From IMG/VR virus record IMGVR_UViG_2734482786_000008: a stretch of DNA of 10,009 nucleotides. One strand, written 5' to 3'. The position numbers were made by a program, and so were the translations under genes. This DNA is from a virus (taxonomy: Duplodnaviria > Heunggongvirae > Uroviricota > Caudoviricetes). Positions 1 through 10,009 of the stretch are shown here, piece by piece. Below the pieces are notes generated by a model. It was not told the origin of the DNA, did not search any database, and was given only the letters and a program-made list of their open reading frames with translations. Within the stretch, counting starts at the first letter, position 1. Each line of letters starts with the position of its first letter.

Positions 1-483
1 ATGACGAAGAAAAAAGCACATAAACCTGGTTCAGCGACCATCGCGCTTAACAAGCGCGCCCGTCACGAATACTTTATCGAAGAAGAGTTCGAAGCGGGAC
101 TTGCCCTGCAAGGCTGGGAAGTTAAATCCCTGCGCGCAGGAAAAGCCAATATCAGCGACAGCTACGTCCTTCTGCGTGACGGAGAGGCATTTCTGTTTGG
201 CGCTAACATCACGCCAATGGCCGTGGCCTCCACGCATGTGGTGTGCGATCCTACCCGTACCCGCAAGTTACTTCTCAACCAGCGCGAACTGGACTCATTG
301 TACGGTCGCGTCAATCGAGAAGGCTATACCGTAGTGGCGCTCTCCCTGTACTGGAAAAATGCCTGGTGCAAAGTGAAAATCGGCGTCGCCAAAGGTAAGA
401 AACAGCACGATAAACGTTCAGATATCAAAGAGCGCGAATGGCAGGTGGATAAAGCACGTATCATGAAAAACGCCCACCGTTAA
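1..483 (+). CDS. smpB: SsrA-binding protein SmpB
   Basis: 160-codon ORF starting at window position 1 (481-483 TAA). The translation is recognisable over its full length as enterobacterial SmpB, and it sits immediately upstream of a tmRNA gene, the conserved smpB-ssrA arrangement. Confidence 0.96.
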
Positions 484-674
484 ACCTGCACTCCAATTAT
501 TGACCAGTTCCTCACCGCGCCTCCCTCTCCGGCGGCGCGAATGAACATCTTATTGGCTATCACATCCGACACAAATGTTGCCATCCCATTGCTTAATCGA
601 ATAAAAATCAGGCTACATGGGTGCTAAATCTTTAACGATAACGCCATTGAGGCTGGTCATGGCGCTCATAAATC

Positions 675-683
675 TGGTATACT
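675..683 (+). promoter_or_regulatory. Candidate extended -10 element (TGgTATACT) of the ssrA promoter
   Basis: TG at 675-676 and TATACT at 678-683 lie about 7 nt upstream of position 691, where a short 5' precursor leader ahead of the mature tmRNA end (698) would start. No convincing -35 hexamer was found, which is common for extended -10 promoters. Assigned by sequence pattern only. Confidence 0.4.
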
Positions 684-697
684 TACCTTTACACATT

Positions 698-1060
698 GGG
701 GCTGATTCTGGATTCGACGGGATTTGCGAAACCCAAGGTGCATGCCGAGGGGCGGTTGGCCTCGTAAAAAGCCGCAAAAAATAGTCGCAAACGACGAAAA
801 CTACGCTTTAGCAGCTTAATAACCTGCTTAGAGCCCTCTCTCCCTAGCCTCCGCTCTTAGGACGGGGATCAAGAGAGGTCAAACCCAAAAGAGATCGCGT
901 GGAAGCCCTGCCTGGGGTTGAAGCGTTAAAACTTAATCAGGCTAGTTTGTTAGTGGCGTGTCCGTCCGCAGCTGGCAAGCGAATGTAAAGACTGACTAAG
1001 CATGTAGTACCGAGGATGTAGGAATTTCGGACGCGGGTTCAACTCCCGCCAGCTCCACCA
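698..1060 (+). ncRNA. ssrA: tmRNA (SsrA, transfer-messenger RNA)
   Basis: 363-nt sequence beginning GGGGCTGATTCTGGATTCGACGGG and ending GGTTCAACTCCCGCCAGCTCCACCA with an encoded CCA. The tag reading frame GCA AAC GAC GAA AAC TAC GCT TTA GCA GCT TAA is present at 787-819 (ANDENYALAA-stop). Recognised as the Escherichia-type tmRNA. Confidence 0.97.
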
Positions 1061-1070
1061 AATAAAACAA

Positions 1071-1103
1071 GGGGTTACGTGAAGGCGTAGCCCCTTTTTC
1101 TTT
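1071..1103 (+). terminator. Rho-independent terminator downstream of ssrA
   Basis: GGGGTTACG (1071-1079) pairs with CGTAGCCCC (1086-1094) as a 9-bp stem including one G-U pair, with loop TGAAGG, followed by TTTTTCTTT (1095-1103). Confidence 0.65.
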
Positions 1104-1242
1104 GGTAGTGGCGGCAAAATGGCGGCAGCCAATTTAATAGCATTGAGAGGACTTACGATGCTGCTGTACAGTTGTATCATATGGTGACTTACCAAATGCG
1201 CTACCGATCAGAAATCAGACCATTTGCCATTACGAGACTACT

Positions 1243-1959
1243 ATGAACATGGACTTAAAAAAAACACGCTTAGTTAATAGATTAGTTATAGTAATTGTTT
1301 TTTTGCTTTTAACATTCGCTACAATGGAGTTTATTTATCTCTACCTACGCTCTTTGAAGACTGCGCCAAACTATACAGGCACAGTTAGTGATATTTTGAT
1401 AGCAACAACCAATATTATTTTATCCTTATGCGCAGTTTTTGCGTTCAAAAACATATCAAGTCTATTCAAGGATAAAATATCTGATAGAGCTATAAACAAA
1501 ATAGATACTGCCTTGATGTTTCTTGATGAAAGCATTGAAAAAATTTCAAGTTTATACTTTAACTTGATGATTGCTAAAATTTATAAAAATGGCAGCAATC
1601 CTAAGGATCCTCAGTTAGACAAACAACTTAATGATGCATCAGATAACCTCAGTGGTGCTTTAGATGCAGCATACAAAGCAAAATCCGCTTTCGGATCATT
1701 AAGTCGTTGGAATATAAGTCTAGAGACAGAGCAAGGAAAGCGGAAAGTTAAGCTTGTCAATGATGTTTTTGAATTATGCATGAAATCAACTACTATGTAT
1801 TCTACCTTAATAAAGGAAATAAACCCCAATTCGACATTTATTAGCGATAAAACTTTTGAAACGCTATTTAATGAATTTGATGTAGAAAGGCAAAGACTTG
1901 AAGAAGAGAGTAAAGCTTTAAAGAACGTATCTATTCATCAAATCTTCACAATTAAATAA
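1243..1959 (+). CDS. Hypothetical membrane-anchored protein (238 aa) in an AT-rich cargo block; function unknown
   Basis: A 238-codon uninterrupted ORF in DNA of roughly 25-30% GC, where stop codons are frequent, so a chance ORF is very unlikely. Two hydrophobic helices are predicted by eye (about residues 10-36 and 49-68), followed by a roughly 170-aa hydrophilic K/D/E/N/S-rich domain. No recognisable catalytic or nucleotide-binding motif. The RBS is weak and the start could be M1 (1243) or M3 (1249). Confidence 0.75.
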   Translation: MNMDLKKTRLVNRLVIVIVFLLLTFATMEFIYLYLRSLKTAPNYTGTVSDILIATTNIILSLCAVFAFKNISSLFKDKISDRAINKIDTALMFLDESIEKISSLYFNLMIAKIYKNGSNPKDPQLDKQLNDASDNLSGALDAAYKAKSAFGSLSRWNISLETEQGKRKVKLVNDVFELCMKSTTMYSTLIKEINPNSTFISDKTFETLFNEFDVERQRLEEESKALKNVSIHQIFTIK

Positions 1960-2070
1960 ATCCTCAGTAATATTGTTATTTATGATGAGATTTATTTGAT
2001 AGCCTTCACTTTGATTTAAAAGTAGGCTTTATCACCAATGACTTACAACAATTAATTAGCAGAAGCGATA

Positions 2071-2099
2071 TTCAACAATAAAACCCGCCAGTGGCGGGT
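2071..2099 (-). terminator. Rho-independent terminator of ogr (minus strand only)
   Basis: Perfect 7-bp stem ACCCGCC / GGCGGGT (2083-2089 and 2093-2099) with a 3-nt loop. On the minus-strand transcript it is followed by UUUAUUGUUGAA (2082-2071). The stem starts at the ogr stop codon. On the plus strand the hairpin is followed by CAGUAUGC, not a U tract. Confidence 0.65.
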
Positions 2100-2314
2100 C
2101 AGTATGCAAACTGTTCCTGCATCCCTTTAGGATGCGGCGGAGCGTCACTAATTTTCTCGGGACGGCAAACAGAACGAACAAAGGTTTCATGCGTTACAAA
2201 CGTATGCCCGCACTCGATATTAGTGCACTGATTGTAACGCTCTTTGGTTTGAGAGGAGACTTGAAAACTACTGCGAGTATGTGCGGCCTGACCACACAAC
2301 GGACAATTCATCAT
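2099..2314 (-). CDS. ogr: Ogr/Delta-family zinc-finger late transcription activator
   Basis: 71-aa product MMNCPLCGQAAHTRSS...YNQCTNIECGHTFVTHE with the C-x2-C ... C-x4-C pattern and overall similarity to phage P2 Ogr (72 aa). SD GAGGAG (complement of 2324-2329) lies 9 nt upstream of the ATG. Position just downstream of gene D matches P2. Confidence 0.9.
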   Translation of the reverse strand: MMNCPLCGQAAHTRSSFQVSSQTKERYNQCTNIECGHTFVTHETFVRSVCRPEKISDAPPHPKGMQEQFAY

Positions 2315-2382
2315 TTATCAACTCTCCTCATCTTTGCTGCATCTACAATAATGATACACAATTATTCAATATTGAGAACCAT

Positions 2383-3483
2383 TTATTCCATTTCAAGATC
2401 ATCAATCTTCACTTCAAGTTCGATACTGGTCGTAAAACCGTTATCCGGGCTGACAGTATGTGTCAGAGTCGTAATGGTCCATTCCGCATCATCTATCGGC
2501 TGTTTAAAGCCACTGACTTTCACAGGCATTTCCGTGTAGAGATCTGCCCGCCCTTCCGCCAGTTGTAGCGAGAATGACGCAACGCCGCGTTGCAGGCGTT
2601 CCCACTGCATTTTCGCCGCTCGTTCGGCGTTGCTCCGGTTGGCATAAGTGCGATTAAGTACCAGCACGTTTTCATCCGTACCCACCAGGTAATCGCCCTG
2701 CTTCGCTTCCGGCTCTTTCTTCTGCTTCTTAGTCCTGCGCTTACGCTTCACCGTGGTGCTTTCTTTCTTCGCGGGTTCGCGGGTATGCAACCAGCTGGCA
2801 ATTACGCCCGTGTAGGCTCCGCGATCTGCCAGGGTAAAGCGGTGACTGTCGCCGTCCTTACGTGTGATAGTGATAACCGGTAGTGGTTTACCGCTGGCGC
2901 TTTTACCCTGTCCCTGCCGGATGAATAACAGATTGCCATTTTTAACCGACGCAATAGCACCGTACTGGCGCGCCAGCCGCATCAGAAAACTGCCGTCACT
3001 CTCATTAGTCTGGTCTATATGTTCCACGGGCTTATCCGACAGGTCTTTACCCAGTGCCATCTTCAGCTTGTGACGCGCGGCTATTTCCTTCACCACTTCC
3101 CCAACAGTGGTGTTATGCCACGATTTTTCACGGCGGGTATTCAGCGTTTCACGAAAATCAGCACTTCGCGCCCGAATAGTCAGGCGGTCCGGTGCGCCAG
3201 TGTGTTCAATCTCGTCCACCGTGAATGCTCCTTTCGGGAAAAGCGGCTGCCCCTTCCAGCCCAGCGCCAGCGTAATGACCGCACCACGGCGCGGCAGAAC
3301 GATTTTTCCGTCGGCGTCGTCCAGCTCCAGATCAAGCTGGTCCGCTTCAAAGCCCCGATTGTCCGTCAGCGTCAGACTCATCAGACGGTTATCCAGCACA
3401 GTAGTGATATCCCTGCCCTCAATACTGATGCTGAATGCGGGAGTTTTGTTGCCTTTGTTAAGCAGTTCAGAGCTGAAATTCAC
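2383..3483 (-). CDS. D: P2 gpD-like tail protein (late gene D)
   Basis: 366-aa ORF directly downstream of the U homolog and upstream of ogr, as in the P2 FETUD operon. The start as called is GTG (complement of 3481-3483), overlapping the U stop as GTGA, consistent with translational coupling; the exact start is uncertain. Confidence 0.88.
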   Translation of the reverse strand: MNFSSELLNKGNKTPAFSISIEGRDITTVLDNRLMSLTLTDNRGFEADQLDLELDDADGKIVLPRRGAVITLALGWKGQPLFPKGAFTVDEIEHTGAPDRLTIRARSADFRETLNTRREKSWHNTTVGEVVKEIAARHKLKMALGKDLSDKPVEHIDQTNESDGSFLMRLARQYGAIASVKNGNLLFIRQGQGKSASGKPLPVITITRKDGDSHRFTLADRGAYTGVIASWLHTREPAKKESTTVKRKRRTKKQKKEPEAKQGDYLVGTDENVLVLNRTYANRSNAERAAKMQWERLQRGVASFSLQLAEGRADLYTEMPVKVSGFKQPIDDAEWTITTLTHTVSPDNGFTTSIELEVKIDDLEME

Positions 3484-3965
3484 GACAGCAGCCCTCCCAC
3501 CGTTTTACTGATATCACTTAAGGCAGATGTTGCCGTGTCCTGCAGATTATTCAGCTGCGTACTGAGATCACCGAACATATCGGACAGGGATTCATCCACC
3601 CGTTTGAGCGACAGGGTGAACTCAATCCGGCGCGGCATACCGTCGCGGAAAAACTCCGTTTTAGTCTGATTCAGTCCCTCAATCACATACATGCCGTAAA
3701 TCGTGCCGCTGCCTTCAATCAGAGGCCATGCTTTCCCCTGTTCTGCCATCTGCTCCAGTGCCAGCAACGACAGCCTGCCGCCTGTTATCTCCGGCATAAG
3801 AACACCAGAAAGCGTCAGCATGTCGTTGTCCGGTCCCAGAAACTGCGTGGACGGACGACGATTTACCCGGCTGTTAGCCGCATGTCGCCAGCTGCGCTGA
3901 TACTGCAGTTCCTGATACGGCACGGTGCGCAGCATAAACACGTACAATCCAAGCACCATCATCAT
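3480..3965 (-). CDS. U: P2 gpU-like tail protein
   Basis: 161-aa ORF (P2 gpU is about 159 aa) between T and D. Its start overlaps the T stop as ATGA (3962-3965). Size and order match P2. Confidence 0.9.
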   Translation of the reverse strand: MMMVLGLYVFMLRTVPYQELQYQRSWRHAANSRVNRRPSTQFLGPDNDMLTLSGVLMPEITGGRLSLLALEQMAEQGKAWPLIEGSGTIYGMYVIEGLNQTKTEFFRDGMPRRIEFTLSLKRVDESLSDMFGDLSTQLNNLQDTATSALSDISKTVGGLLS

Positions 3966-6900
3966 GCGTCGTATCCCCCTTGATCGCTGTAGTTACTCCT
4001 GGCTTTTGCCTTCAGCCTGCGTTCACGTTCATCAAGCTGGCGTGCCACCTCCCGCGCAATATCCTGCGCACTTTGTCCTGGCTGCGTCTGAATGATGATC
4101 TGCGTCGGTGCCTCAATCCGTTGAGCGGGCGGCACAGTGGCTGCACGACTCACCATCGCTTCGCCGCCTTTCGCGGGAAGTGCCAAAGGATGTAACGGCG
4201 GAAGCTCTGCAGGCGCGGCAGCAACGCCCATCATTCCGGCAACAACGGCAGCCAGTGCAGCTGTATTTCTCCGACTGGTCACGTTTGCCGGACCGTTGAC
4301 AATTTCAGGCCCGTTTTCACCGACAATGCCGAACTGCCCGCGCGGGATATAGCCGCCGCTGTCATACATCCCCGCAAAGCCATATCCCCATGACGGAAAA
4401 CCACCCGATGGCATCATCACTTTACCGTCTGCATTCACCGTCGCAGGTTGCTGACGCGTCACGCTTTCCGGCAGTTTCGCCTTTGCAGCCTCTTTACTGA
4501 CAATACCGAGTTTCTCCAGCAACCAGGAAACGCCGGATTTCAGGGAGTCCAACGGATGCATGACCATATTCAGCCCTTCCGCCAGTGCCTCCCCGAATCG
4601 TCGCCCCATTGCCGCTGCGCTCTGCAGTTCGGCAGAGGTCGACTTAACAGGCGTCAGCAGATCAGTAAACCAGCCCCACAACGCCTGTACTTTGTCGCCA
4701 ATCCACTGGAACACGGGCTTAAGCGGTTCGAATGCAGCACTGATGGGACCTGCCGCCGCTTTGAATCCTTCCACCACGCCACCGAGAAATGCGGTGATGG
4801 GTTGCCAGTATTTCCAGACAACCAGCGCCACGCCCGCCAGTGCAGTAACCACAAGACCTATCGGACTGAGCAGAGCACCTAACAGACCAGATACGGCATA
4901 CAGGGCAACGCGCAGCATCGCCAGCGGACCGGATGCCAGCACTCGCAACACAGCACCTGCGGCAATCAGTCCACCACGTAGTGCTGCCAGTGGATTCATA
5001 AACATCACAGCAACTGCACGTAAACCGGATAATCCAGACCGCAACAGTGCAACCGGCGCACCTGCTACAGTTTTCAGAACATGTCCCGTCAGTGATGCCG
5101 TGCGGCGCAAAGACGACAACGGCGCAGTAAGTAAACCCGCAGCGTTGCCCGATGAAGCAAGCCCGCGTCGCAGCAGTGCCAGTGGTGCGCCAGCCAGCCA
5201 GGACAACGCGCTGCTGGTTCGAGTTACTGCTGCCGTAACGGAAGGTAACGTTTTGATACCCAGCACAGAGAATCCCAGACGGATGACTGCCAGCGGCCCC
5301 AGCACTGCAGCCAACATCACCGCCAGGGTGCCGAGGCCCACGGTAACCGCAGCCACCACAGCCGCTACTTTCATCAGTGTGCCCGTCAGTTCCGGGTTAG
5401 CTTCCACCCAACGACGCGACGCTCCCGTGACGCTTTTCACCATGTACAGAATATCCATCAGCGGCTGGCGCAGCGTTTCGCCCAGGCTGCTGAAGGTGTT
5501 CTGCGTTCCGGTTTTGACCAGCAACCACTGCGCAGAAAGTGAGTCCTTGTTAATGTCGGATTCTTTCTGCATGGAGCCGAGCGCATCATTGCCCGCAGTC
5601 AGTTTTAGCTGGCGCTGCAGTTCCGGCAGGTTGTTTGCCAGTTTCGCCGCGTCATCGCCAAACTCTTTACCAAACAACATGGTCATGGCAGACAGACGCT
5701 TGTCCTGCGGCAGTGCGTTCACCTTCTCCAGCACACGCTGGATAGTTCCCATCGCATCCTTCGTCATCTGCTTTTCAATCACTTCAGGATTGAGTTTCAG
5801 CAGATTCATCCCTTCAAAGAAACTCTTACTTTGCATGGTGGCAATGGACAATTCACGCACCATCGCGTTTGCTGCACTGGCAGCAACCTCCGGCGCAGCG
5901 CCCAGTGTCAGGAAGGTGGAACCCAGCGCCGCCGCTTTACGATAATCCAGACGATCTGCCACACCGCCCAGGCGTTGCATGACATCAATGATGTCTGACC
6001 CTTTCGACATGGCGTTATCATCCAGATAGTTCAGCGCATCACCGAGCTGTTCAATATTGCGGGTAGGGATTTTGTAGAGCTGGGCGATTTTCCCCAGACT
6101 TTCTGACAGTTCATCCGCTGGCAGCTCAAAGGCTGTTGCCGCCTTTGCTGCCGTGCTGGCGAAGGCCAGCAGGTCACGTTTCTGGTCTTCCCAGCTGTCG
6201 TCAGGATTTGCGACGTTCATGCGCGCACCACCTTCAACCAGTGCGGCAAAGTCCACAGCACCGTTTTCCATCGGCAACTGTTCGCTGGCAGCCTTGATGG
6301 CATCCTGCATTTCGTAAAAACGCGCAGTGCGGTTGCCATTATCATCACGCAGACCATTGACCTGCTTTGCCACACCTTTCATGGCATCTTCCATGCTGGT
6401 ATAGCTTTTTACTGCTGCCATCACTGGCGCACCCATTGCCAGCCCTGCAGCCGTGGTAGTGGCTCCGGCTCCTGCGATGCGATCGCGCACTTCAAGCCGT
6501 CTTGAGTATTGTTCTCTGGCAGCGTTCATCCGTGCCTGTTGTTCACCCAGACGTTTAAGTGCTTTTTGCTGGCCCTCCAGTGCCTGCCTTGTTTCTTCAG
6601 CATTTTTCTTAAGTTCTCGCTGGGCACTACTGAGTTGTCTGGTATCAATCCCTGATTCTTTAAGTGCCTGACGTTGTCTCTGGACCGCCCCCAACAAGCC
6701 GTTATAGGTCTGCTGAAGTTCCTGTACTCGTGTTTTGGCCTGACTGAATAACTTTGCCTGCGCGGCGGTTGGCCTGTTAGTGGCAGCAAATTGTGTGGCG
6801 AGTTTTGCCGCCTCTTCGCGGGCTGCGTTCAGGTTGTTGGCTGTTATGGCTAGTTGCGAGCGCGTCTTGCGAAATTCATCAATTCTGCCAGCCTGCTTAT

Positions 6901-7039
6901 TCAGTTCTTTGAGGCTGTTTCGGGTATTCTGAATTGCGCCAGCCAGCTCTTTCGAACTGGCCTGTGCAACACGGAATGGGCTGGTGAGTTTGTCAACCGC
7001 ATTAAGAATGACCTGCAGCCGCAGGTTGTTATCACTCAT
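3962..7039 (-). CDS. T: Tail tape measure protein (P2 gpT-like), 1025 aa
   Basis: Very long ORF directly downstream of the E/E' chaperone pair. It has an N-terminal Q/A/R/K/E-rich coiled-coil-like region, a central Gly/Ala/Leu-rich hydrophobic region with tandem repeats, and a C-terminal domain, all typical of tape measure proteins. Longer than P2 gpT (about 815 aa). Confidence 0.93.
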   Translation of the reverse strand: MSDNNLRLQVILNAVDKLTSPFRVAQASSKELAGAIQNTRNSLKELNKQAGRIDEFRKTRSQLAITANNLNAAREEAAKLATQFAATNRPTAAQAKLFSQAKTRVQELQQTYNGLLGAVQRQRQALKESGIDTRQLSSAQRELKKNAEETRQALEGQQKALKRLGEQQARMNAAREQYSRRLEVRDRIAGAGATTTAAGLAMGAPVMAAVKSYTSMEDAMKGVAKQVNGLRDDNGNRTARFYEMQDAIKAASEQLPMENGAVDFAALVEGGARMNVANPDDSWEDQKRDLLAFASTAAKAATAFELPADELSESLGKIAQLYKIPTRNIEQLGDALNYLDDNAMSKGSDIIDVMQRLGGVADRLDYRKAAALGSTFLTLGAAPEVAASAANAMVRELSIATMQSKSFFEGMNLLKLNPEVIEKQMTKDAMGTIQRVLEKVNALPQDKRLSAMTMLFGKEFGDDAAKLANNLPELQRQLKLTAGNDALGSMQKESDINKDSLSAQWLLVKTGTQNTFSSLGETLRQPLMDILYMVKSVTGASRRWVEANPELTGTLMKVAAVVAAVTVGLGTLAVMLAAVLGPLAVIRLGFSVLGIKTLPSVTAAVTRTSSALSWLAGAPLALLRRGLASSGNAAGLLTAPLSSLRRTASLTGHVLKTVAGAPVALLRSGLSGLRAVAVMFMNPLAALRGGLIAAGAVLRVLASGPLAMLRVALYAVSGLLGALLSPIGLVVTALAGVALVVWKYWQPITAFLGGVVEGFKAAAGPISAAFEPLKPVFQWIGDKVQALWGWFTDLLTPVKSTSAELQSAAAMGRRFGEALAEGLNMVMHPLDSLKSGVSWLLEKLGIVSKEAAKAKLPESVTRQQPATVNADGKVMMPSGGFPSWGYGFAGMYDSGGYIPRGQFGIVGENGPEIVNGPANVTSRRNTAALAAVVAGMMGVAAAPAELPPLHPLALPAKGGEAMVSRAATVPPAQRIEAPTQIIIQTQPGQSAQDIAREVARQLDERERRLKAKARSNYSDQGGYDA
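4895..5212 (-). repeat. Five tandem roughly 21-22-aa repeats inside the tape measure gene (motif [GA]-P-[LV]-x-x-L-R-x-G-L)
   Basis: In the T translation, APLALLRRGL, APLSSLRRTA, APVALLRSGL, NPLAALRGGL and GPLAMLRVAL recur at spacings of 21-22 residues (about aa 618-713). Checked against the DNA: the complement of 5161-5191 encodes GAPLALLRRG. Confidence 0.55.
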
Positions 7040-7468
7040 CGTTGGCCCCGCTTCTCTGAATCGCTTTATACCGCCATTCCAGCACCTCGGTCAGCGGCAT
7101 AACGTCAGTAACGGATGGCGGCCAGTGAAAGATGGTGGCGATATCAGCCACCAGATCGTCAACCGTCAGGCTGTCGGTAAACCGGCAAGCACCGACTTCT
7201 TCAACAAAAAAGTGACGACCTCAACCGACATGGCAGTGAGATCTGCCGGGTCCATCTCTGCAATTTCCTGTGCGGTCAGTGCCGGGCTGGAGATGCGGGG
7301 GATCACGGTCATCATCGCGTTCACATCCATATCCATAATGGCCTGCAGGCGTGTACCGCGCAGCGCACCGGACTGCGGTTTACGCAGCACAACTTCGGTG
7401 ATTTCTGTTTTACCGCGCTTGATGGGGGTATCCAGTTGAATGGTCTTTTCAGTCTGCTTATCGCTCAT
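7032..7468 (-). CDS. E+E' tail assembly chaperone fusion, made by programmed -1 frameshift (about 146 aa)
   Basis: After the slippery heptamer T-TTT-TTG (complement of 7205-7211), the -1 frame stays open for 58 codons (VEEVGACRFTDSLTVDDLVADIATIFHWPPSVTDVMPLTEVLEWRYKAIQRSGANDE) and stops at TGA (7032-7034), just after the T start codon (7037-7039). This mirrors the phage P2 E/E+E' arrangement. Confidence 0.75.
7166..7468 (-). CDS. E: P2 gpE-like tail assembly chaperone (zero-frame product, 100 aa)
   Basis: 100-aa ORF immediately upstream of T. An SD-like AGGA lies 7 nt upstream of the ATG (7466-7468). The slippery site sits 12 codons before its stop. Confidence 0.88.
   Translation of the reverse strand: MSDKQTEKTIQLDTPIKRGKTEITEVVLRKPQSGALRGTRLQAIMDMDVNAMMTVIPRISSPALTAQEIAEMDPADLTAMSVEVVTFLLKKSVLAGLPTA
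7205..7211 (-). promoter_or_regulatory. Programmed -1 ribosomal frameshift slippery heptamer T-TTT-TTG
   Basis: Plus strand reads CAAAAAA at 7205-7211; on the mRNA this is U UUU UUG in the E frame (codons ACU UUU UUG). It is the same heptamer reported for the P2 E/E' frameshift. Confidence 0.75.
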
Positions 7469-7522
7469 TTTGCTGTCCTTTAAATTGGGTTCTGGCGCGG
7501 TATCCCGCGCCGTTCAGATAGA

Positions 7523-8038
7523 TCAGAGGCCAAGTGCGTTGCGGTGCGCTTCCATCAGGTCCACACCGTCCACAATTTCCACCATATTGATCAGGTCCAC
7601 TTCATAGAGCACCTCACCATTGATGGTCAGCTTCGCGTAGCTGTTGGTACTGGTCACTTTGGTGGTGTTGCTTTCGCCCGTCTTCCACTCACCGGAATCC
7701 ACTTCTTTGTGACGTCCACGCACCACAAGCTCCACGGCCTGCACTTCCCCGGTATCGTCACGCTGGATAGAGCCGGTAAAGCGCAGCTGGATTCCATCCA
7801 CCGTAGCTTTGCCCATCTGTTTAAACAGCAGCAGTTCAGTACCACCAATGGAAAATTCTGTATCCAGCGCACTGTCATCAAGCCCCAGATCCACATCCAC
7901 CGCCCCCGGCATTCCGCCGCCGCGATACTTCTCATATTTGCGGGTGAATTTCGGCAGCGTCAGCGACTCAACGATCCCCTGCCAGTTGTTCCCGTCGTTA
8001 AACAGGTTCAGGTGTTTTAATTTGCGTGGTAAAGCCAT
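7523..8038 (-). CDS. FII: Tail tube protein (P2 gpFII-like)
   Basis: 171-aa ORF (P2 FII is about 172 aa) directly downstream of the sheath gene. SD AAGGGGA precedes the ATG. Order FI-FII-E matches P2. Confidence 0.93.
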   Translation of the reverse strand: MALPRKLKHLNLFNDGNNWQGIVESLTLPKFTRKYEKYRGGGMPGAVDVDLGLDDSALDTEFSIGGTELLLFKQMGKATVDGIQLRFTGSIQRDDTGEVQAVELVVRGRHKEVDSGEWKTGESNTTKVTSTNSYAKLTINGEVLYEVDLINMVEIVDGVDLMEAHRNALGL

Positions 8039-8047
8039 GTTGTCCCC

Positions 8048-9220
8048 TTACGCGCTGACCTGGCTGGCGAAATTCACCAGGTACTGATCGGTGATGCGCT
8101 GACGCAGCATCAGGTTTTCAAGTGGCGGCACTGGCGTGTAGTCGTAGTCGATAGTGAGTTTCCCGGCTTTCAGCGTGTCTTTGTCATTCACCGACTCGTC
8201 CAGCCAGCAATCACCACCAATGAGATACCCCTGACTGACCAGGCTGCGCATTTTGGCGCGGATACCTTCGATAATGTCGCGGGCCAGCGACGGATTCAGC
8301 GGTTTGTCCACTGCCCACATGTGCGCTTCTGCCATCGTGTCCATCAGTACCTGCGCCGTGCGGGTGTAGTTTTCGAAGGCAAAGAGCGGGTCATCACTCA
8401 GGCTGCGGGAACCCCAGAAGCGGAAACCGTCTTTACGCACAAGCGTGGTGACGTCGTTCTGGTTCAGCAGACCTGCATCGGTTGCCGGGTCCTGCAGATC
8501 CCAGAACACATCAGCAGAAATTCCGGTGACACCGTTCACGCCCACGTTGGACAGGCTTTTGTGCCATCCGGTCTGCTCGTCAATTTTGGCGCGCAGACCA
8601 AGCGCACGGGCGGTGGCATAAGCCGTTGCTTCGGCATTCAGCACCGTGTCCCAGCCAGTAAAGTCAGGCCAGATCAGCATCCCTTCGCGCTGGCTGAAGT
8701 TTTCACGGTAAGTGATTGCTTCCTGCACCGTCTTGCAACCATACGCTGACAGGTAGGCAAACCCACGCAGGCTTTGCGCCACGCTCAGCAACTCAGTCGC
8801 AACGGCTTTGTTATCGTGACCAGGTACGCCGAGAATGCGCGGTTTAACGCCGAGCTGTGACTGGGCAGATAGCAGGGCTTTCATGCCTGTTTTTTTACCC
8901 TCGGCGGTCACTGCGCCGATGATATTGGTTGTGGTTTCTTCTTCCGTTTCACCCTGCGGCACACGCACAACAACGGTCACGGGTTTTGCCTGGTCAGCGA
9001 TGGCGTCCAGCGAACGGGCCAGCGTGCCGGACTCACCCGCTTTACCGCTGGCAGTCAGCACATCAGTGATCAGCACGGGTTTATTAAGAGGAAACATTTT
9101 TGCATCGGCATCATCGCCCGTGCAGACCATACCCACGATGGCGGTGCTCACCGTGGTAATGGATCGGGTGCCTTCGTTGACTTCAACAACGCGCACCCCA
9201 TGGTGGTAATCCTGAGCCAT
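8048..9220 (-). CDS. FI: Contractile tail sheath protein (P2 gpFI-like)
   Basis: 390-aa ORF (P2 FI is about 396 aa) as first gene of the tail operon. A strong SD AGGAGG (complement of 9230-9235) lies 9 nt upstream of the ATG (9218-9220). Confidence 0.94.
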
Positions 9221-9296
9221 AGTGGCGAACCTCCTGATTGGATTAGGCTTCGCCCTATGTTGAAGTGATTGTGCCTGACAAACAGCTAAGCGCAGT

Positions 9297-9314
9297 TGTA
9301 CCGTTATTCACACA
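9297..9314 (-). promoter_or_regulatory. Candidate Ogr-dependent late promoter element (TGT-N12-ACA) upstream of FI
   Basis: TGT (9297-9299), exactly 12 nt, then ACA (9312-9314), matching the dyad described for P2/P4 late promoters centred near -55. The centre (about 9305) predicts a start near 9250, about 30 nt upstream of the FI ATG. -10/-35 elements were not confidently identified. Confidence 0.45.
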
Positions 9315-9361
9315 AAATGACGGTATTTGTCTGCTGCAGGGATAATCAAAATAATGCTGAT

Positions 9362-9928
9362 TCAGGGAGATTCATTGCTCTTATTTGCCGGAAATTTTCT
9401 ATAAATGGTAGAAACGCCTACATCAAAAATCAGTGCAATACGCTGTCTTGATTCTCCGGCCTCGAGTAAACGCCCAATCTGTGCCCACTGTTCGGTGGTC
9501 AACTTAGGACGGCGTCCACCTACTCTGCCTTTGGCACGAGCTGCAGCCAGCCCTGCCCTGGTACGTTCAACTATCAGTTCGCGTTCCATTTCAGCCAGGG
9601 CACCCATGACATGAAAAAAGAAACGGCCCATTGGGGTGCTGGTATCAATACTGTCAGTCAGGCTTCGGAAATTCACGCCTCGCTGACGCAACTCTTCTAT
9701 CAGCGTAACAAGATGCCGCATACTGCGCCCCAACCTGTCCAGCTTCCAGACAACCAGCGTGTCTCCTGCCGATAGTGTCCTGAGCAGTTTTTTCAACCCT
9801 GGTCTGTCGGACTTAGTGCCACTGATTTTATCCTCAAAAATCCGCTCACATCCCGCGCAGTTCAGTGCATTACGTTGCAAATCGGTGTTCTGGTCATTTG
9901 TTGACACGCGTACATAGCCAATAAGCAT
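9362..9928 (-). CDS. Serine-recombinase DNA invertase (Hin/Gin/Cin/Pin family)
   Basis: Translation from the ATG at 9926-9928 begins MLIGYVRVSTNDQ with the catalytic-serine motif and is similar along its length to Hin/Gin-type invertases (VVWKLDRLGRS, MGRFFFHVMGALAEMERELI, GGRRPKL, C-terminal HTH GVSTIYRKF). The track ORF extends to 9973 (203 aa), but AGGGGG (complement of 9935-9940) is placed correctly for the 9928 start, giving 188 aa. Confidence 0.92.
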   Translation of the reverse strand: MLIGYVRVSTNDQNTDLQRNALNCAGCERIFEDKISGTKSDRPGLKKLLRTLSAGDTLVVWKLDRLGRSMRHLVTLIEELRQRGVNFRSLTDSIDTSTPMGRFFFHVMGALAEMERELIVERTRAGLAAARAKGRVGGRRPKLTTEQWAQIGRLLEAGESRQRIALIFDVGVSTIYRKFPANKSNESP

Positions 9929-9929
9929 G

Positions 9930-9960
9930 ATCATCCCCCTGAATAAAAACCGGGGATGAT
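9930..9960 (-). repeat. 9-bp inverted repeat spanning the invertase ribosome-binding site
   Basis: ATCATCCCC (9930-9938) and GGGGATGAT (9952-9960) are exact reverse complements separated by 13 nt. In the minus-strand mRNA the 3' arm contains the SD and ends 1 nt before the ATG. There is no U tract after it, so it is not a terminator. Confidence 0.4.
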
Positions 9961-9983
9961 GCCAGTTAGCCATTATCTCTGCA

Positions 9984-10009
9984 TTTTCATAAACGTTGGT
10001 TTGGGAGAA
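9984..10009. other. Candidate invertase crossover site (hix/gix/cix-like 12-2-12 imperfect palindrome)
   Basis: TTTTCATAAACG-TT-GGTTTGGGAGAA. The right half-site complement, TTCTCCCAAACC, matches the remembered TTATCNAAAACC half-site consensus at 10 of 12 positions; the left half matches at 9 of 12. It lies about 55 bp upstream of the invertase start, where gix/cix sites sit relative to gin/cin, and abuts the window edge. Confidence 0.4.

Follow-up and report, generated by a model that had tools for sequence, protein, structure and literature searches.

Why do the late genes of a P2-like phage begin next to an intact tmRNA gene, and to which element does the AT-rich DNA between them belong? 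Both questions are raised by the 10,009-nt stretch of DNA analyzed here (the window), which a preliminary description had read as the ogr-side junction of a P2-like prophage in or next to ssrA. The order of elements given there was confirmed: behind ssrA come a terminator and 0.95 kb of AT-rich DNA, and after these the minus-strand genes ogr and D-U-T-E-FII-FI (Table 1). The phage genes (ogr-D-U-T-E/E'-FII-FI) stand next to the att site in P2 order, and every one of them has a Pfam match, all above the curated cut-offs; a GpE ORF is also annotated at the matching position in two related loci (L002 and L027). Taken as a whole, the sequence comparisons indicate that the window very probably contains the junction on the ssrA side (attL) of a P2-like prophage (Peduoviridae) of the Fels-2/SopEPhi type in Escherichia coli.

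Table 1. Coordinates of the features in the window
Feature	Position	Strand	Basis or remark
smpB, host gene upstream of ssrA	1..483	+	Pfam SmpB 1.5e-57
Candidate sigma-70-like ssrA promoter, TGGTCA-18-TATACT with extended -10 TG	654..683	+	Consensus scan only
ssrA (tmRNA), complete, encoded CCA	698..1060	+	ARAGORN, Rfam RF00023
att core (attL), 45 nt common to ssrA and phage attP	1016..1060	+	Second copy in sister lysogens
Intrinsic terminator right behind ssrA, phage-supplied	1061..1106	+	12-bp stem at 1069-1096 plus T-run
Direct-repeat pair TGGCGGCA, candidate arm-type Int-binding sites of the ogr-side att arm	1109..1127	+	11-nt period
AT-rich cargo cassette in the attP-ogr slot	1129..2081	+	Low GC; flanks kept, content varies
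Promoter-like site for the cargo gene, TTGAGA-18-TACAGT	1143..1172	+	Consensus scan only, weak
Cargo gene, 238 aa	1243..1959	+	ORF, conserved family
ogr terminator	2082..2100	-	dG -14, z -3.6
ogr, late-gene activator, zinc finger	2099..2314	-	Pfam Ogr_Delta 4.8e-22; phrog_603
gpD, baseplate hub / late control D	2383..3483	-	Pfam Phage_GPD 7e-28
gpU	3480..3965	-	Pfam Phage_P2_GpU 2e-44
gpT tape measure	3962..7039	-	Pfam PhageMin_Tail 1.2e-18
gpE (7166-7468) and E' frame (7032-7151), tail assembly chaperones	7032..7468	-	Pfam Phage_TAC_7 8.6e-19
gpFII tail tube	7523..8038	-	Pfam Phage_tube 8.8e-60
gpFI tail sheath	8048..9220	-	Pfam Phage_sheath_1 and Phage_sheath_1C

On the host side, ARAGORN and Rfam both returned the intact 363-nt tmRNA gene with an encoded CCA at its end that had been described, at positions 698-1060 (+) and with the tag ANDENYALAA; the match to RF00023 scored 295.8 bits over the full model. 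The smpB annotation upstream is present in all matching E. coli genomes. The sigma-70-like site between the two genes lies 15 nt upstream of the mature 5' end of the tmRNA, a position that would suit an ssrA promoter.

The last 45 nt of ssrA constitute the att core, and the sequence to be matched at the far end of the prophage is ATGTAGGAATTTCGGACGCGGGTTCAACTCCCGCCAGCTCCACCA. The core occurs once in the window, which stops at position 10,009, and the distal repeat and the integrase are known from sister genomes only. In E. coli ET665 (locus L002), which is 97.9% identical to the whole window over all 10,009 nt, an exact copy of these 45 nt lies 36,517 bp away. This copy stands about 115 bp beyond the point where a tyrosine integrase gene ends (3'), and past it come the native ssrA flank and ypjA. 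The integrase (341 aa, 95% identical to Fels-2 Int) has its 3' end toward the distal core, and the prophage, which has the same junction, is apparently complete at 36.5 kb and carries a lysogeny module of the 186 type (CI/CII/Apl/Fil). A second exact copy of the core beyond int is also found in TUM12355 (L001) and in locus L030. Thus, both the direct repeat of the ssrA 3' end and the integrase expected at the distal end were recovered, in ET665, TUM12355, and L030. The locus closest to the window (L028) is 99.4% identical to it, and none of the retrieved loci reaches 100%.

Alignment with unoccupied loci, the other check that had been proposed, placed the insertion point at the end of ssrA. 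With a chimeric query that joins the ssrA end to the distal flank and had to be covered to at least 80%, the empty attB was found in 2528 of the 5426 complete E. coli genomes, where a different native flank directly follows ssrA; among the matches listed, identity was 100% and the junction fell exactly after ...CCACCA. The last 161 nt of ssrA are identical between non-lysogens and the window, and the free phage Cartapus has a single copy of the 45-nt core, located in its int-ogr interval. The crossover would have taken place somewhere within the 45-nt core, the exact point not being locatable inside the identity. A junction-spanning query detected the true ssrA/arm junction in 230 of the 5426 genomes. 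The phage arm by itself (window 1061-1135) matches 527 of them, many of these matches being a backbone fossil near ypjCB, away from ssrA. This fossil in the E. coli backbone consists of an arm together with a degenerate ssrA 3' end.

The terminator behind ssrA had been described as the gene's own, a claim that did not hold up. The hairpin with its T-run at 1069-1096 is strong (dG -20 kcal/mol, z -4.1), and the 68 nt that follow the att core are the same in the attP of Cartapus and in Fels-2. Every lysogen examined keeps the terminator sequence, as do Fels-2 and the Cartapus attP, and the empty sites lack it; to judge from these comparisons, it is phage DNA. The suggestion that the 3' end of the tmRNA gene may be phage-derived was, in turn, borne out for all sequence 3' of the crossover inside the 45-nt identity, including this terminator. 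Copies of TGGCGGCA follow at 1109-1116 and 1120-1127, a pair that all related phages retain; across the 47.7 kb of locus L002, repeat pairs spaced 11 nt apart are confined to the two att arms. P2 has arm-type Int sites, and by analogy Int may bind the TGGCGGCA repeats. Homology between lysogens ends just past them, at about position 1128.

Together, these elements suggest how the junction could have arisen. In attP, the 45-nt counterpart of the ssrA 3' end runs in the direction of int and is situated just downstream of it; the other side of the core holds the strong terminator, the TGGCGGCA pair, an accessory-gene slot, and ogr reading toward the core. A tyrosine integrase would recombine the attP core with the identical 3' end of the chromosomal ssrA, joining the host ssrA body to phage DNA that consists of the identical 3' end, the phage terminator, the cargo, and ogr, and placing int 36.5 kb away, beside the displaced host 3' fragment. 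The tmRNA would remain intact, and the phage terminator would stop ssrA transcription ahead of the cargo. The fusion of ssrA to the phage, the distant int, and the intact tmRNA would thus all follow from the layout of attP.

The AT-rich block itself has a GC content of 0.27 to 0.38 over approximately positions 1130-2080, compared to 0.47 to 0.59 on either side and 0.50 to 0.59 in the phage core genes. It occupies a slot whose left edge lies at about 1128, after the arm repeats, and whose right edge is either the ogr terminator or the 3' end of ogr. Both flanks are conserved between lysogens, and the content is unrelated and exchangeable: the slot holds the 238-aa transmembrane protein of the window or its 60%-identical variant, elsewhere a 160-aa BRCT-like ORF (177 genomes), a retron-type reverse transcriptase (RT) with a 57-aa ORF, or a ParA-like ATPase, and in Fels-2 it is essentially empty (about 30 bp). 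In PADLOC, retron RT models pick up the RT cargo (RT_VI scoring best, at 6.6e-18), and the match between the BRCT-like ORF and the candidate PDC-S48 is weak, whereas the ParA-like protein and the 238-aa protein of the window have no match.

The cargo of the window would be a single gene, convergent with ogr, that encodes an inner-membrane hairpin joined to a cytoplasmic four-helix bundle. In the predicted protein, two transmembrane helices at the N terminus precede a four-helix bundle at the C terminus (AF2 pLDDT 80), and the predicted topology is N-in/C-in. A profile search of 1.84 billion representatives returned 4 homologous representatives at 50% identity, and a word-indexed homologue search returned 11 unannotated clusters at 90% identity; tblastn against 50,697 phage records gave no match. 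All members of the family have a GC content of 0.31 to 0.33 and were seen only in P2-like phage contexts, the closer relatives in the attP-ogr slot and the distant ones (31 to 36% identity) in the slot between gpS and gpV. A neighboring 246-aa ORF in L023 proved unrelated to the family. No Pfam, PADLOC, or PHROG family was assigned to the protein (Pfam TssR_C appeared only below threshold), and a Foldseek search of the AF2 model against the PDB gave no match at an E value of ≤0.001, the entries above this value being generic four-helix bundles, de novo designs, and chemoreceptor sensor domains. Neither by sequence nor by fold was the protein found in a described family of anti-phage defence or superinfection exclusion. 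It may be expressed in the lysogen, and the likeliest role is superinfection exclusion or anti-phage defence, a possibility that we rate well below even.

Are these sequences, then, what they appear to be? If the adjacency to ssrA were coincidental, the prophage would have inserted at another target nearby. We found no support for this, and it is conceivable only because the window is without the integrase end; in sister genomes each end of the prophage carries an exact copy of the 45-nt repeat, the unoccupied locus joins ssrA straight to the distal flank, and free phages contain the ssrA 3' end in their attP, all of which leaves it virtually no credence. A more substantial objection would be that the AT-rich block (1129-2081) is the leftover of an earlier element at ssrA and that the P2-like phage arrived later beside it. 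The site is a busy one, with tandem arrays and fossils: a CP4-57-type island stands behind the prophage in L001 and L030, the fossil arm near ypjCB retains its degenerate ssrA 3' end, remnants with only an arm, cargo, and the ogr terminator exist (L016-L018), and the composition of the block is sharply unlike that of the phage genes. However, a tandem arrangement predicts a second core between the block and ogr, and the window has one core, as judged by a scan that allowed up to 3 mismatches in 25 nt. Moreover, the phage terminator and the arm repeats lie between ssrA and the block as they do in the free-phage attP, another gene fills this slot in the genome of a free phage, and homologues of the cargo gene occur only in P2-like phages, including at the internal gpS-gpV slot. 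An earlier-element origin is therefore very unlikely. Because the terminator and the arm repeats precede the block and are contiguous with the core as in attP, the block would belong to the recombining unit. Its origin, which had been said to be impossible to decide from the window, is thus decidable: the arm repeats on one side and the ogr terminator on the other enclose it within the phage, and by this placement it is cargo (a moron) of the phage and not a remnant.

It could still be argued that the 238-aa ORF arose by chance in an AT-rich spacer, given that it has no family match, no clear Shine-Dalgarno sequence before the ATG at 1243, and a promoter match at the level of a consensus scan. 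Yet the ORF is conserved at full length in independent phages (31 to 84% identity), an 11-member alignment (53 to 100% identity) contains 70 invariant columns, the AF2 model is confident at residues 80 to 238, and the dN/dS of 0.13 to 0.25 places the gene under purifying selection, all of which makes a chance ORF highly improbable. A different concern is that, although the junction is real, this genome may carry a remnant that is defective and cannot be induced, not a functional prophage. TUM12355 has a deletion from portal to tape measure as well as IS elements, L030 retains only the cargo, ogr, and int, and L016 only the arm and the cargo; because these sisters are deleted remnants, the copy in the window may be defective beyond it. 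Within the window, by contrast, the late genes are all full-length ORFs with full-length Pfam matches, L027, L028, and L031 are intact over the stretch read, and ET665 combines the same junction with its apparently complete prophage, so we regard a defective element as unlikely, if a good deal less so than the preceding objections.

With the block placed inside the phage, it is tempting to speculate that the attP-ogr slot is a distinct, unnamed accessory-gene hotspot of Fels-2-type phages and that the 238-aa protein is a new exclusion or defence factor, a combination that we consider doubtful. No description of an ogr-att hotspot by that name was found in the literature, and the slot is absent from the P2 hotspots named in the portions of the literature examined. 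In a 2026 NAR survey, the core markers are only GpQ-L, int, and GpA, and a scheme of this kind would presumably pool the attP-ogr slot with the region "downstream of GpL." If the speculation is true, the hotspot would come to lie directly behind the highly transcribed ssrA after integration, insulated by a phage-borne terminator, and the 238-aa protein would be a factor restricted to P2-like phages that moves between the attP-ogr and gpS-gpV hotspots. Since its family is tiny and restricted to P2-like phages and the slot also hosts a retron-type RT, the cargo gene is a reasonable candidate for a phage-challenge screen. For the junction, the importance beyond correct annotation is small: the tmRNA gene of about 4% of complete E. 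coli genomes has a phage-supplied 3' end and terminator.

The late-gene order and the ogr-attP-int layout are those of P2, which also carries AT-rich accessory genes in fixed slots (Z/fun and orf30). The target of P2 is locI and that of 186 a tRNA-Ile gene, and neither phage is known to use ssrA; the likeness to 186 resides in the lysogeny module of the sister prophage in ET665. A further accessory slot of P2, old/tin, is located between gpA and gpQ according to PMC9122126. CP4-57-type islands, which have a P4 integrase, share the ssrA target, likewise leave that gene with a restored 3' end, and are found in tandem arrangement with this prophage. They differ in their integrase subfamily (Arm-DNA-bind_3) and in not being phages, and since int in the L030 island begins some 166 nt beyond the att core and is directed away from it, it lies at the ssrA-proximal end.

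A closer relative is Fels-2 of Salmonella Typhimurium LT2 (Felsduovirus; NC_010463), which, like its relatives SopEPhi and RE-2010, uses the ssrA 3' end as its target and shares the att core. Its ogr-side (right) arm is 96.7% identical over 90 nt (window 1040-1129), a match that includes the terminator and the TGGCGRCA pair. Its late genes, in contrast, share only 77 to 82% DNA identity with those of the window phage, the roughly 30 bp between its arm repeats and its ogr terminator stand against the 0.95-kb AT-rich gene here, and its host is Salmonella rather than E. coli. The gene order in Fels-2 is att, ogr, D, U, T, E, FII, FI, invertase ... CI, int, att, and the presence of ogr rather than int at the ssrA side, to which the preliminary description had drawn attention, is therefore the normal, published geometry. 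The arrangement is ordinary and already known, and the way in which a prophage is oriented at a tRNA-like gene is a simple consequence of its attP layout. PMC10107115 lists Fels-2, SopEPhi, and SpaX among the ssrA elements that have a P2 integrase and restore the full 3' end, and its table cites Williams 2003 and Pelludat 2003.

Also close in the late genes are Escherichia phage Cartapus (Elveevirus), with 96.9% DNA identity across ogr-D-U-T-E-FII-FI-invertase, and the predicted prophage "Escherichia phage 500465-1" (Wadgaonvirus), with approximately 95 to 97% across the same genes. Both share the attP core, the terminator, and the arm repeats with the window; unlike it, they hold the 160-aa BRCT-like ORF in the slot instead of the 238-aa membrane protein, and their ogr allele is a different one, so that homology picks up again only at window position 2184. 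The attP region of Cartapus reads int, a RES gene, arm repeats, the 45-nt core, the terminator, arm repeats, the 160-aa cargo, and ogr.

The part of the window spanning smpB and ssrA was matched in all 5426 complete E. coli genomes, and the gene for a 238-aa protein (the cargo) together with ogr-D was additionally covered in 9 of them. E. coli ET665, 97.9% identical to the window over its full length, carries a seemingly complete P2-like prophage that runs from ssrA through to a site-specific integrase; the terminal 45 nt of ssrA (ATGTAGGAATTTCGGACGCGGGTTCAACTCCCGCCAGCTCCACCA) recur without a mismatch ~115 bp beyond the integrase 3' end, where they are followed by a different flank and then ypjA, with 36,517 bp between the two copies. 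The same 45-nt repeat brackets a deleted version of the prophage in E. coli TUM12355 and, in a further locus (L030, 9794-16917), a mini-remnant reduced to cargo, ogr, and int. There, the two cores are 5.7 kb apart, and the order runs from cargo and ogr across the deletion to a Fels-2-type int, a gene for a 577-aa protein with a dCMP-deaminase domain, and the second core. A synthetic empty-site query, in which the 3' part of ssrA was fused to the distal flank of ET665, was covered to at least 80% in 2528 of the 5426 genomes, with 100% identity among the matches listed, so the insertion point falls precisely at the ssrA end, and the lysogen retains an unaltered ssrA sequence. Together, these comparisons identify the window as the junction of a P2-like prophage integrated in ssrA. 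This bears out the preliminary description, which had proposed such a junction and had named as checks an unoccupied ssrA locus, now found, and a distal repeat with an integrase, both of which are seen in the near-identical ET665.

The description of genes and features was likewise accurate according to ARAGORN, Rfam, Pfam, PHROG, and the GC profile. The Gin/Cin-type invertase beside the tail-fiber region implies an invertible host-range segment just past the end of the window. Tail-fiber content varies among the otherwise near-identical loci L027 to L031.

Features of the window and of the fossil arm outside it
Feature	Coordinates	Strand	Evidence or remark
smpB	1-483	+	Pfam SmpB, 1.5e-57
ssrA (tmRNA), complete, encoded CCA at end	698-1060	+	ARAGORN (tag ANDENYALAA); Rfam RF00023, 295.8 bits, full-length
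Strong intrinsic terminator	1069-1096		12-bp GC-rich hairpin plus T-run; dG -20 kcal/mol, z -4.1; starts 8 nt past ssrA
Repeat pair, candidate arm-type sites	1109-1127		Phage DNA
AT-rich block	~1130-2080		GC 0.27-0.38 vs 0.47-0.59 on flanks
One long ORF in AT-rich block, 238 aa	1243-1959	+	
ogr terminator	2082-2100	-	
ogr, D, U, T, E/E', FII, FI, then Gin-type invertase		-	Pfam or PHROG matches well over threshold
Gin/Cin-type DNA invertase	9362-9973	-	Resolvase, 2.9e-53; adjoins tail-fiber region, as in Fels-2
Fossil arm, locus L019	3470-3565		Outside window, ~6 kb past distal att site
Fossil arm, ET665 locus (L002)	4010-4090	-	Outside window, ~6 kb past distal att site
Fossil arm, TUM12355 locus (L001)	1694-1769		Outside window, ~6 kb past distal att site

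The unintegrated form of the attachment site is available from the free genome of Escherichia phage Cartapus, which is 96.9% identical to window positions 2184-10009 and in which the 45-nt core is present once, between int and ogr. On the int side, its attP reads int, a RES-domain gene, a TGGCGACA/TGGCGGCA repeat pair, an AT-rich spacer, and the core; on the ogr side, the core is followed by AATAAATCAAGGGGTTACGTGAAAGCGTAGCCCCTTTTTCTT, a TGGCGGCA/TGGCGACA repeat pair, a 160-aa ORF, and ogr. The terminator behind ssrA and the repeat pair at 1109-1127 of the window are therefore phage DNA, which refutes the assignment of this terminator to ssrA itself. Across the 47.7-kb ET665 locus, TGGCGRCA pairs spaced at 11 nt are confined to the two att arms, a distribution that fits candidate arm-type integrase sites, presumably of the kind found in P2. 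Within attP, the core is oriented like int and lies downstream of it, and ogr reads toward the core from the opposite side. Recombination with the chromosomal ssrA therefore joins the body of ssrA to the terminator-cargo-ogr side and leaves int next to the displaced host 3' fragment, so that ogr, not int, comes to lie beside ssrA. The placement of ogr noted earlier was correct, but it is not unusual, as Fels-2 has the same order.

The AT-rich block could be either phage cargo or the remnant of an earlier element at the same site, a choice that the preliminary description considered undecidable from the window. A tandem arrangement would need a second att core between the block and ogr, and none was found in the window, which argues that the block lies inside the phage. 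Moreover, the phage terminator and arm repeats separate ssrA from the block and directly adjoin the core, as in the free-phage attP; homology to other lysogens continues to position 1128, breaks there, and restarts at the ogr terminator, or at 2184 in the ogr 3' end for phages with another ogr allele. Comparison with lysogens and free-phage attP hence assigns the block to the phage, as a moron in an accessory slot between attP and ogr. A further line of evidence is that the slot varies across related elements: it is ~30 bp long in Fels-2 and otherwise holds a BRCT-like ORF of 160 aa (Cartapus, 500465-1, and 177 E. coli genomes), a ParA-like ATPase, or a variant of the window's protein (60% identity). 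In some E. coli lysogens (L008, 1169-2345), it holds a 257-aa retron-type reverse transcriptase (best PADLOC match, retron RT_VI, 6.6e-18), a 57-aa ORF, and ~260 nt of noncoding DNA, which may constitute a retron. At least three ogr alleles (window 2099-2184 and L003 to L009) differ chiefly in the C-terminal third; as each is linked to its own terminator and tends to accompany particular cargo, cassette exchange seems to take in the ogr 3' end.

The 238-aa protein had no Pfam, PADLOC, or PHROG family and no tblastn match in 50,697 phage records. Its family is tiny, with 11 clusters at 90% identity and 4 representatives at 50% identity among 1.84 billion. The 70 invariant columns in the 11-member alignment (53-100% identity) and a dN/dS of 0.13-0.25 show that the ORF is a real gene. 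According to AlphaFold2 (mean pLDDT, 80), the N terminus would form two transmembrane helices, linked by a short loop that is highly conserved (APNYTGTVSD), and residues 80-238 a four-helix bundle modeled with confidence; the charge distribution suggests an N-in/C-in topology with a cytoplasmic bundle. A Foldseek search of the model against the PDB returned nothing beyond generic helical bundles. Among the relatives examined, homologues were found only in P2-like phages, which likewise speaks for the block being phage cargo. Those at 53-84% identity occupy the same attP-ogr slot, and those at 31-36% are encoded antisense to the late genes in the gpS-gpV interval of other P2-like phages (L023, 2021-2749; L026, 3624-4295), seemingly a distinct accessory slot, which we take to be the orf30 position of P2. 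Their presence in both slots suggests that the gene family moves between P2 hotspots. From its context in a variable, AT-rich, prophage-borne slot that is also home to a retron-type reverse transcriptase, the most likely role, which we put forward only tentatively on guilt by association, would be that of a lysogen-expressed exclusion or defense factor.

Known P2 hotspots include gpA-gpQ (old/tin) (Rousset et al. 2022, PMC9122126) and the int-att, int-primase, and tail-gene ("downstream of GpL") sites of a 2026 NAR survey (PMC13586616); neither paper names the attP-ogr slot. Because the core markers of that survey exclude ogr and D, it would probably pool the slot under "downstream of GpL". 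The int-core side of attP is variable too, with a 401-aa "RES" protein in Cartapus (L004, 3911-5116), a dCTP-deaminase-domain gene plus thyX in TUM12355 (L001, 27151-28706), and a dCMP-deaminase-domain protein in L030 (13548-15281), which matches the int-att hotspot (PMC13586616). The ET665 prophage also carries accessory genes at known P2 slots (L002, 17498-21830 and 30260-32056): a P-loop NTPase and an HNH endonuclease, each followed by a hypothetical gene, between DinI and the portal gene, and an AAA ATPase between gpS and gpV.

A query across the true ssrA/arm junction was covered in 230 of the 5426 complete E. coli genomes (4.2%); the 527 genomes matched by a phage-arm query are inflated by fossil arm copies away from ssrA. 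In the assembly collection, the exact 238-aa protein was located in 318 index blocks, and at every place read it lies between smpB-ssrA and ogr. In many E. coli genomes, a fossil Fels-2-type ogr-side arm, consisting of the terminator and a decayed repeat pair preceded by a degenerate ssrA 3' end (TTCAGACACCGCCAGCTCAACA), is found between a recombinase pseudogene beside ypjA and ypjCB, which points to ancient tandem occupancy of ssrA and to an origin of the ypjA region itself in old island DNA. A tandem junction is also seen in L012 (4780-4900), where the end of a CbtA/CbeA/RadC island with a degenerate ssrA 3' end (TTCAGACTCCCCCAGCCCACCA) is fused directly to a Fels-2-type terminator, arm repeats, a cargo homologue, and the ogr of a decayed P2-like prophage. 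In another host (L016, 4790-5870; also L017 and L018), ssrA is followed by the phage terminator, arm repeats, and a cargo homologue at 72% identity, after which only the ogr terminator and a few ogr nucleotides precede unrelated genes, the prophage having been lost and the arm and cargo kept.

The closest known counterpart is Fels-2, whose reference record (LT2 prophage) reads att (1-23), ogr (139-357, minus), D, U, T ... CI, int (32527-33552, plus), att. Identity is 96.7% between its ogr-side arm and window positions 1040-1129 and 95% between its Int and the ET665 integrase; at 33.7 kb, Fels-2 is exceeded in length by ~8% by the ET665 sister prophage (36.5 kb in total). The Cartapus attP also matches RE-2010, SEN8, SopEPhi, and P2-like phages of Klebsiella and Yersinia. 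Fels-2, SopEPhi, and SpaX have been tabulated as P2-integrase elements at ssrA that restore its full 3' end (PMC10107115, citing Williams 2003 and Pelludat 2003). In L030, a CP4-57-like island stands in tandem behind the prophage, and its P4-type integrase starts 166 nt past the att core and points away, so that P2-type and P4-type placements are seen side by side at one locus. Given ogr-side elements of the Fels-2 type and int-proximal elements of the P4 type, the end at which int lies is thus a property of each element's own attP layout. The arrangement in the window is ordinary and already known, namely, the geometry of Fels-2 and SopEPhi, here in a group member from E. coli, to which our analysis adds a phage-borne terminator, the assignment of the AT-rich block as in-phage cargo in a variable slot, and an uncharacterized cargo family restricted to P2-like phages.
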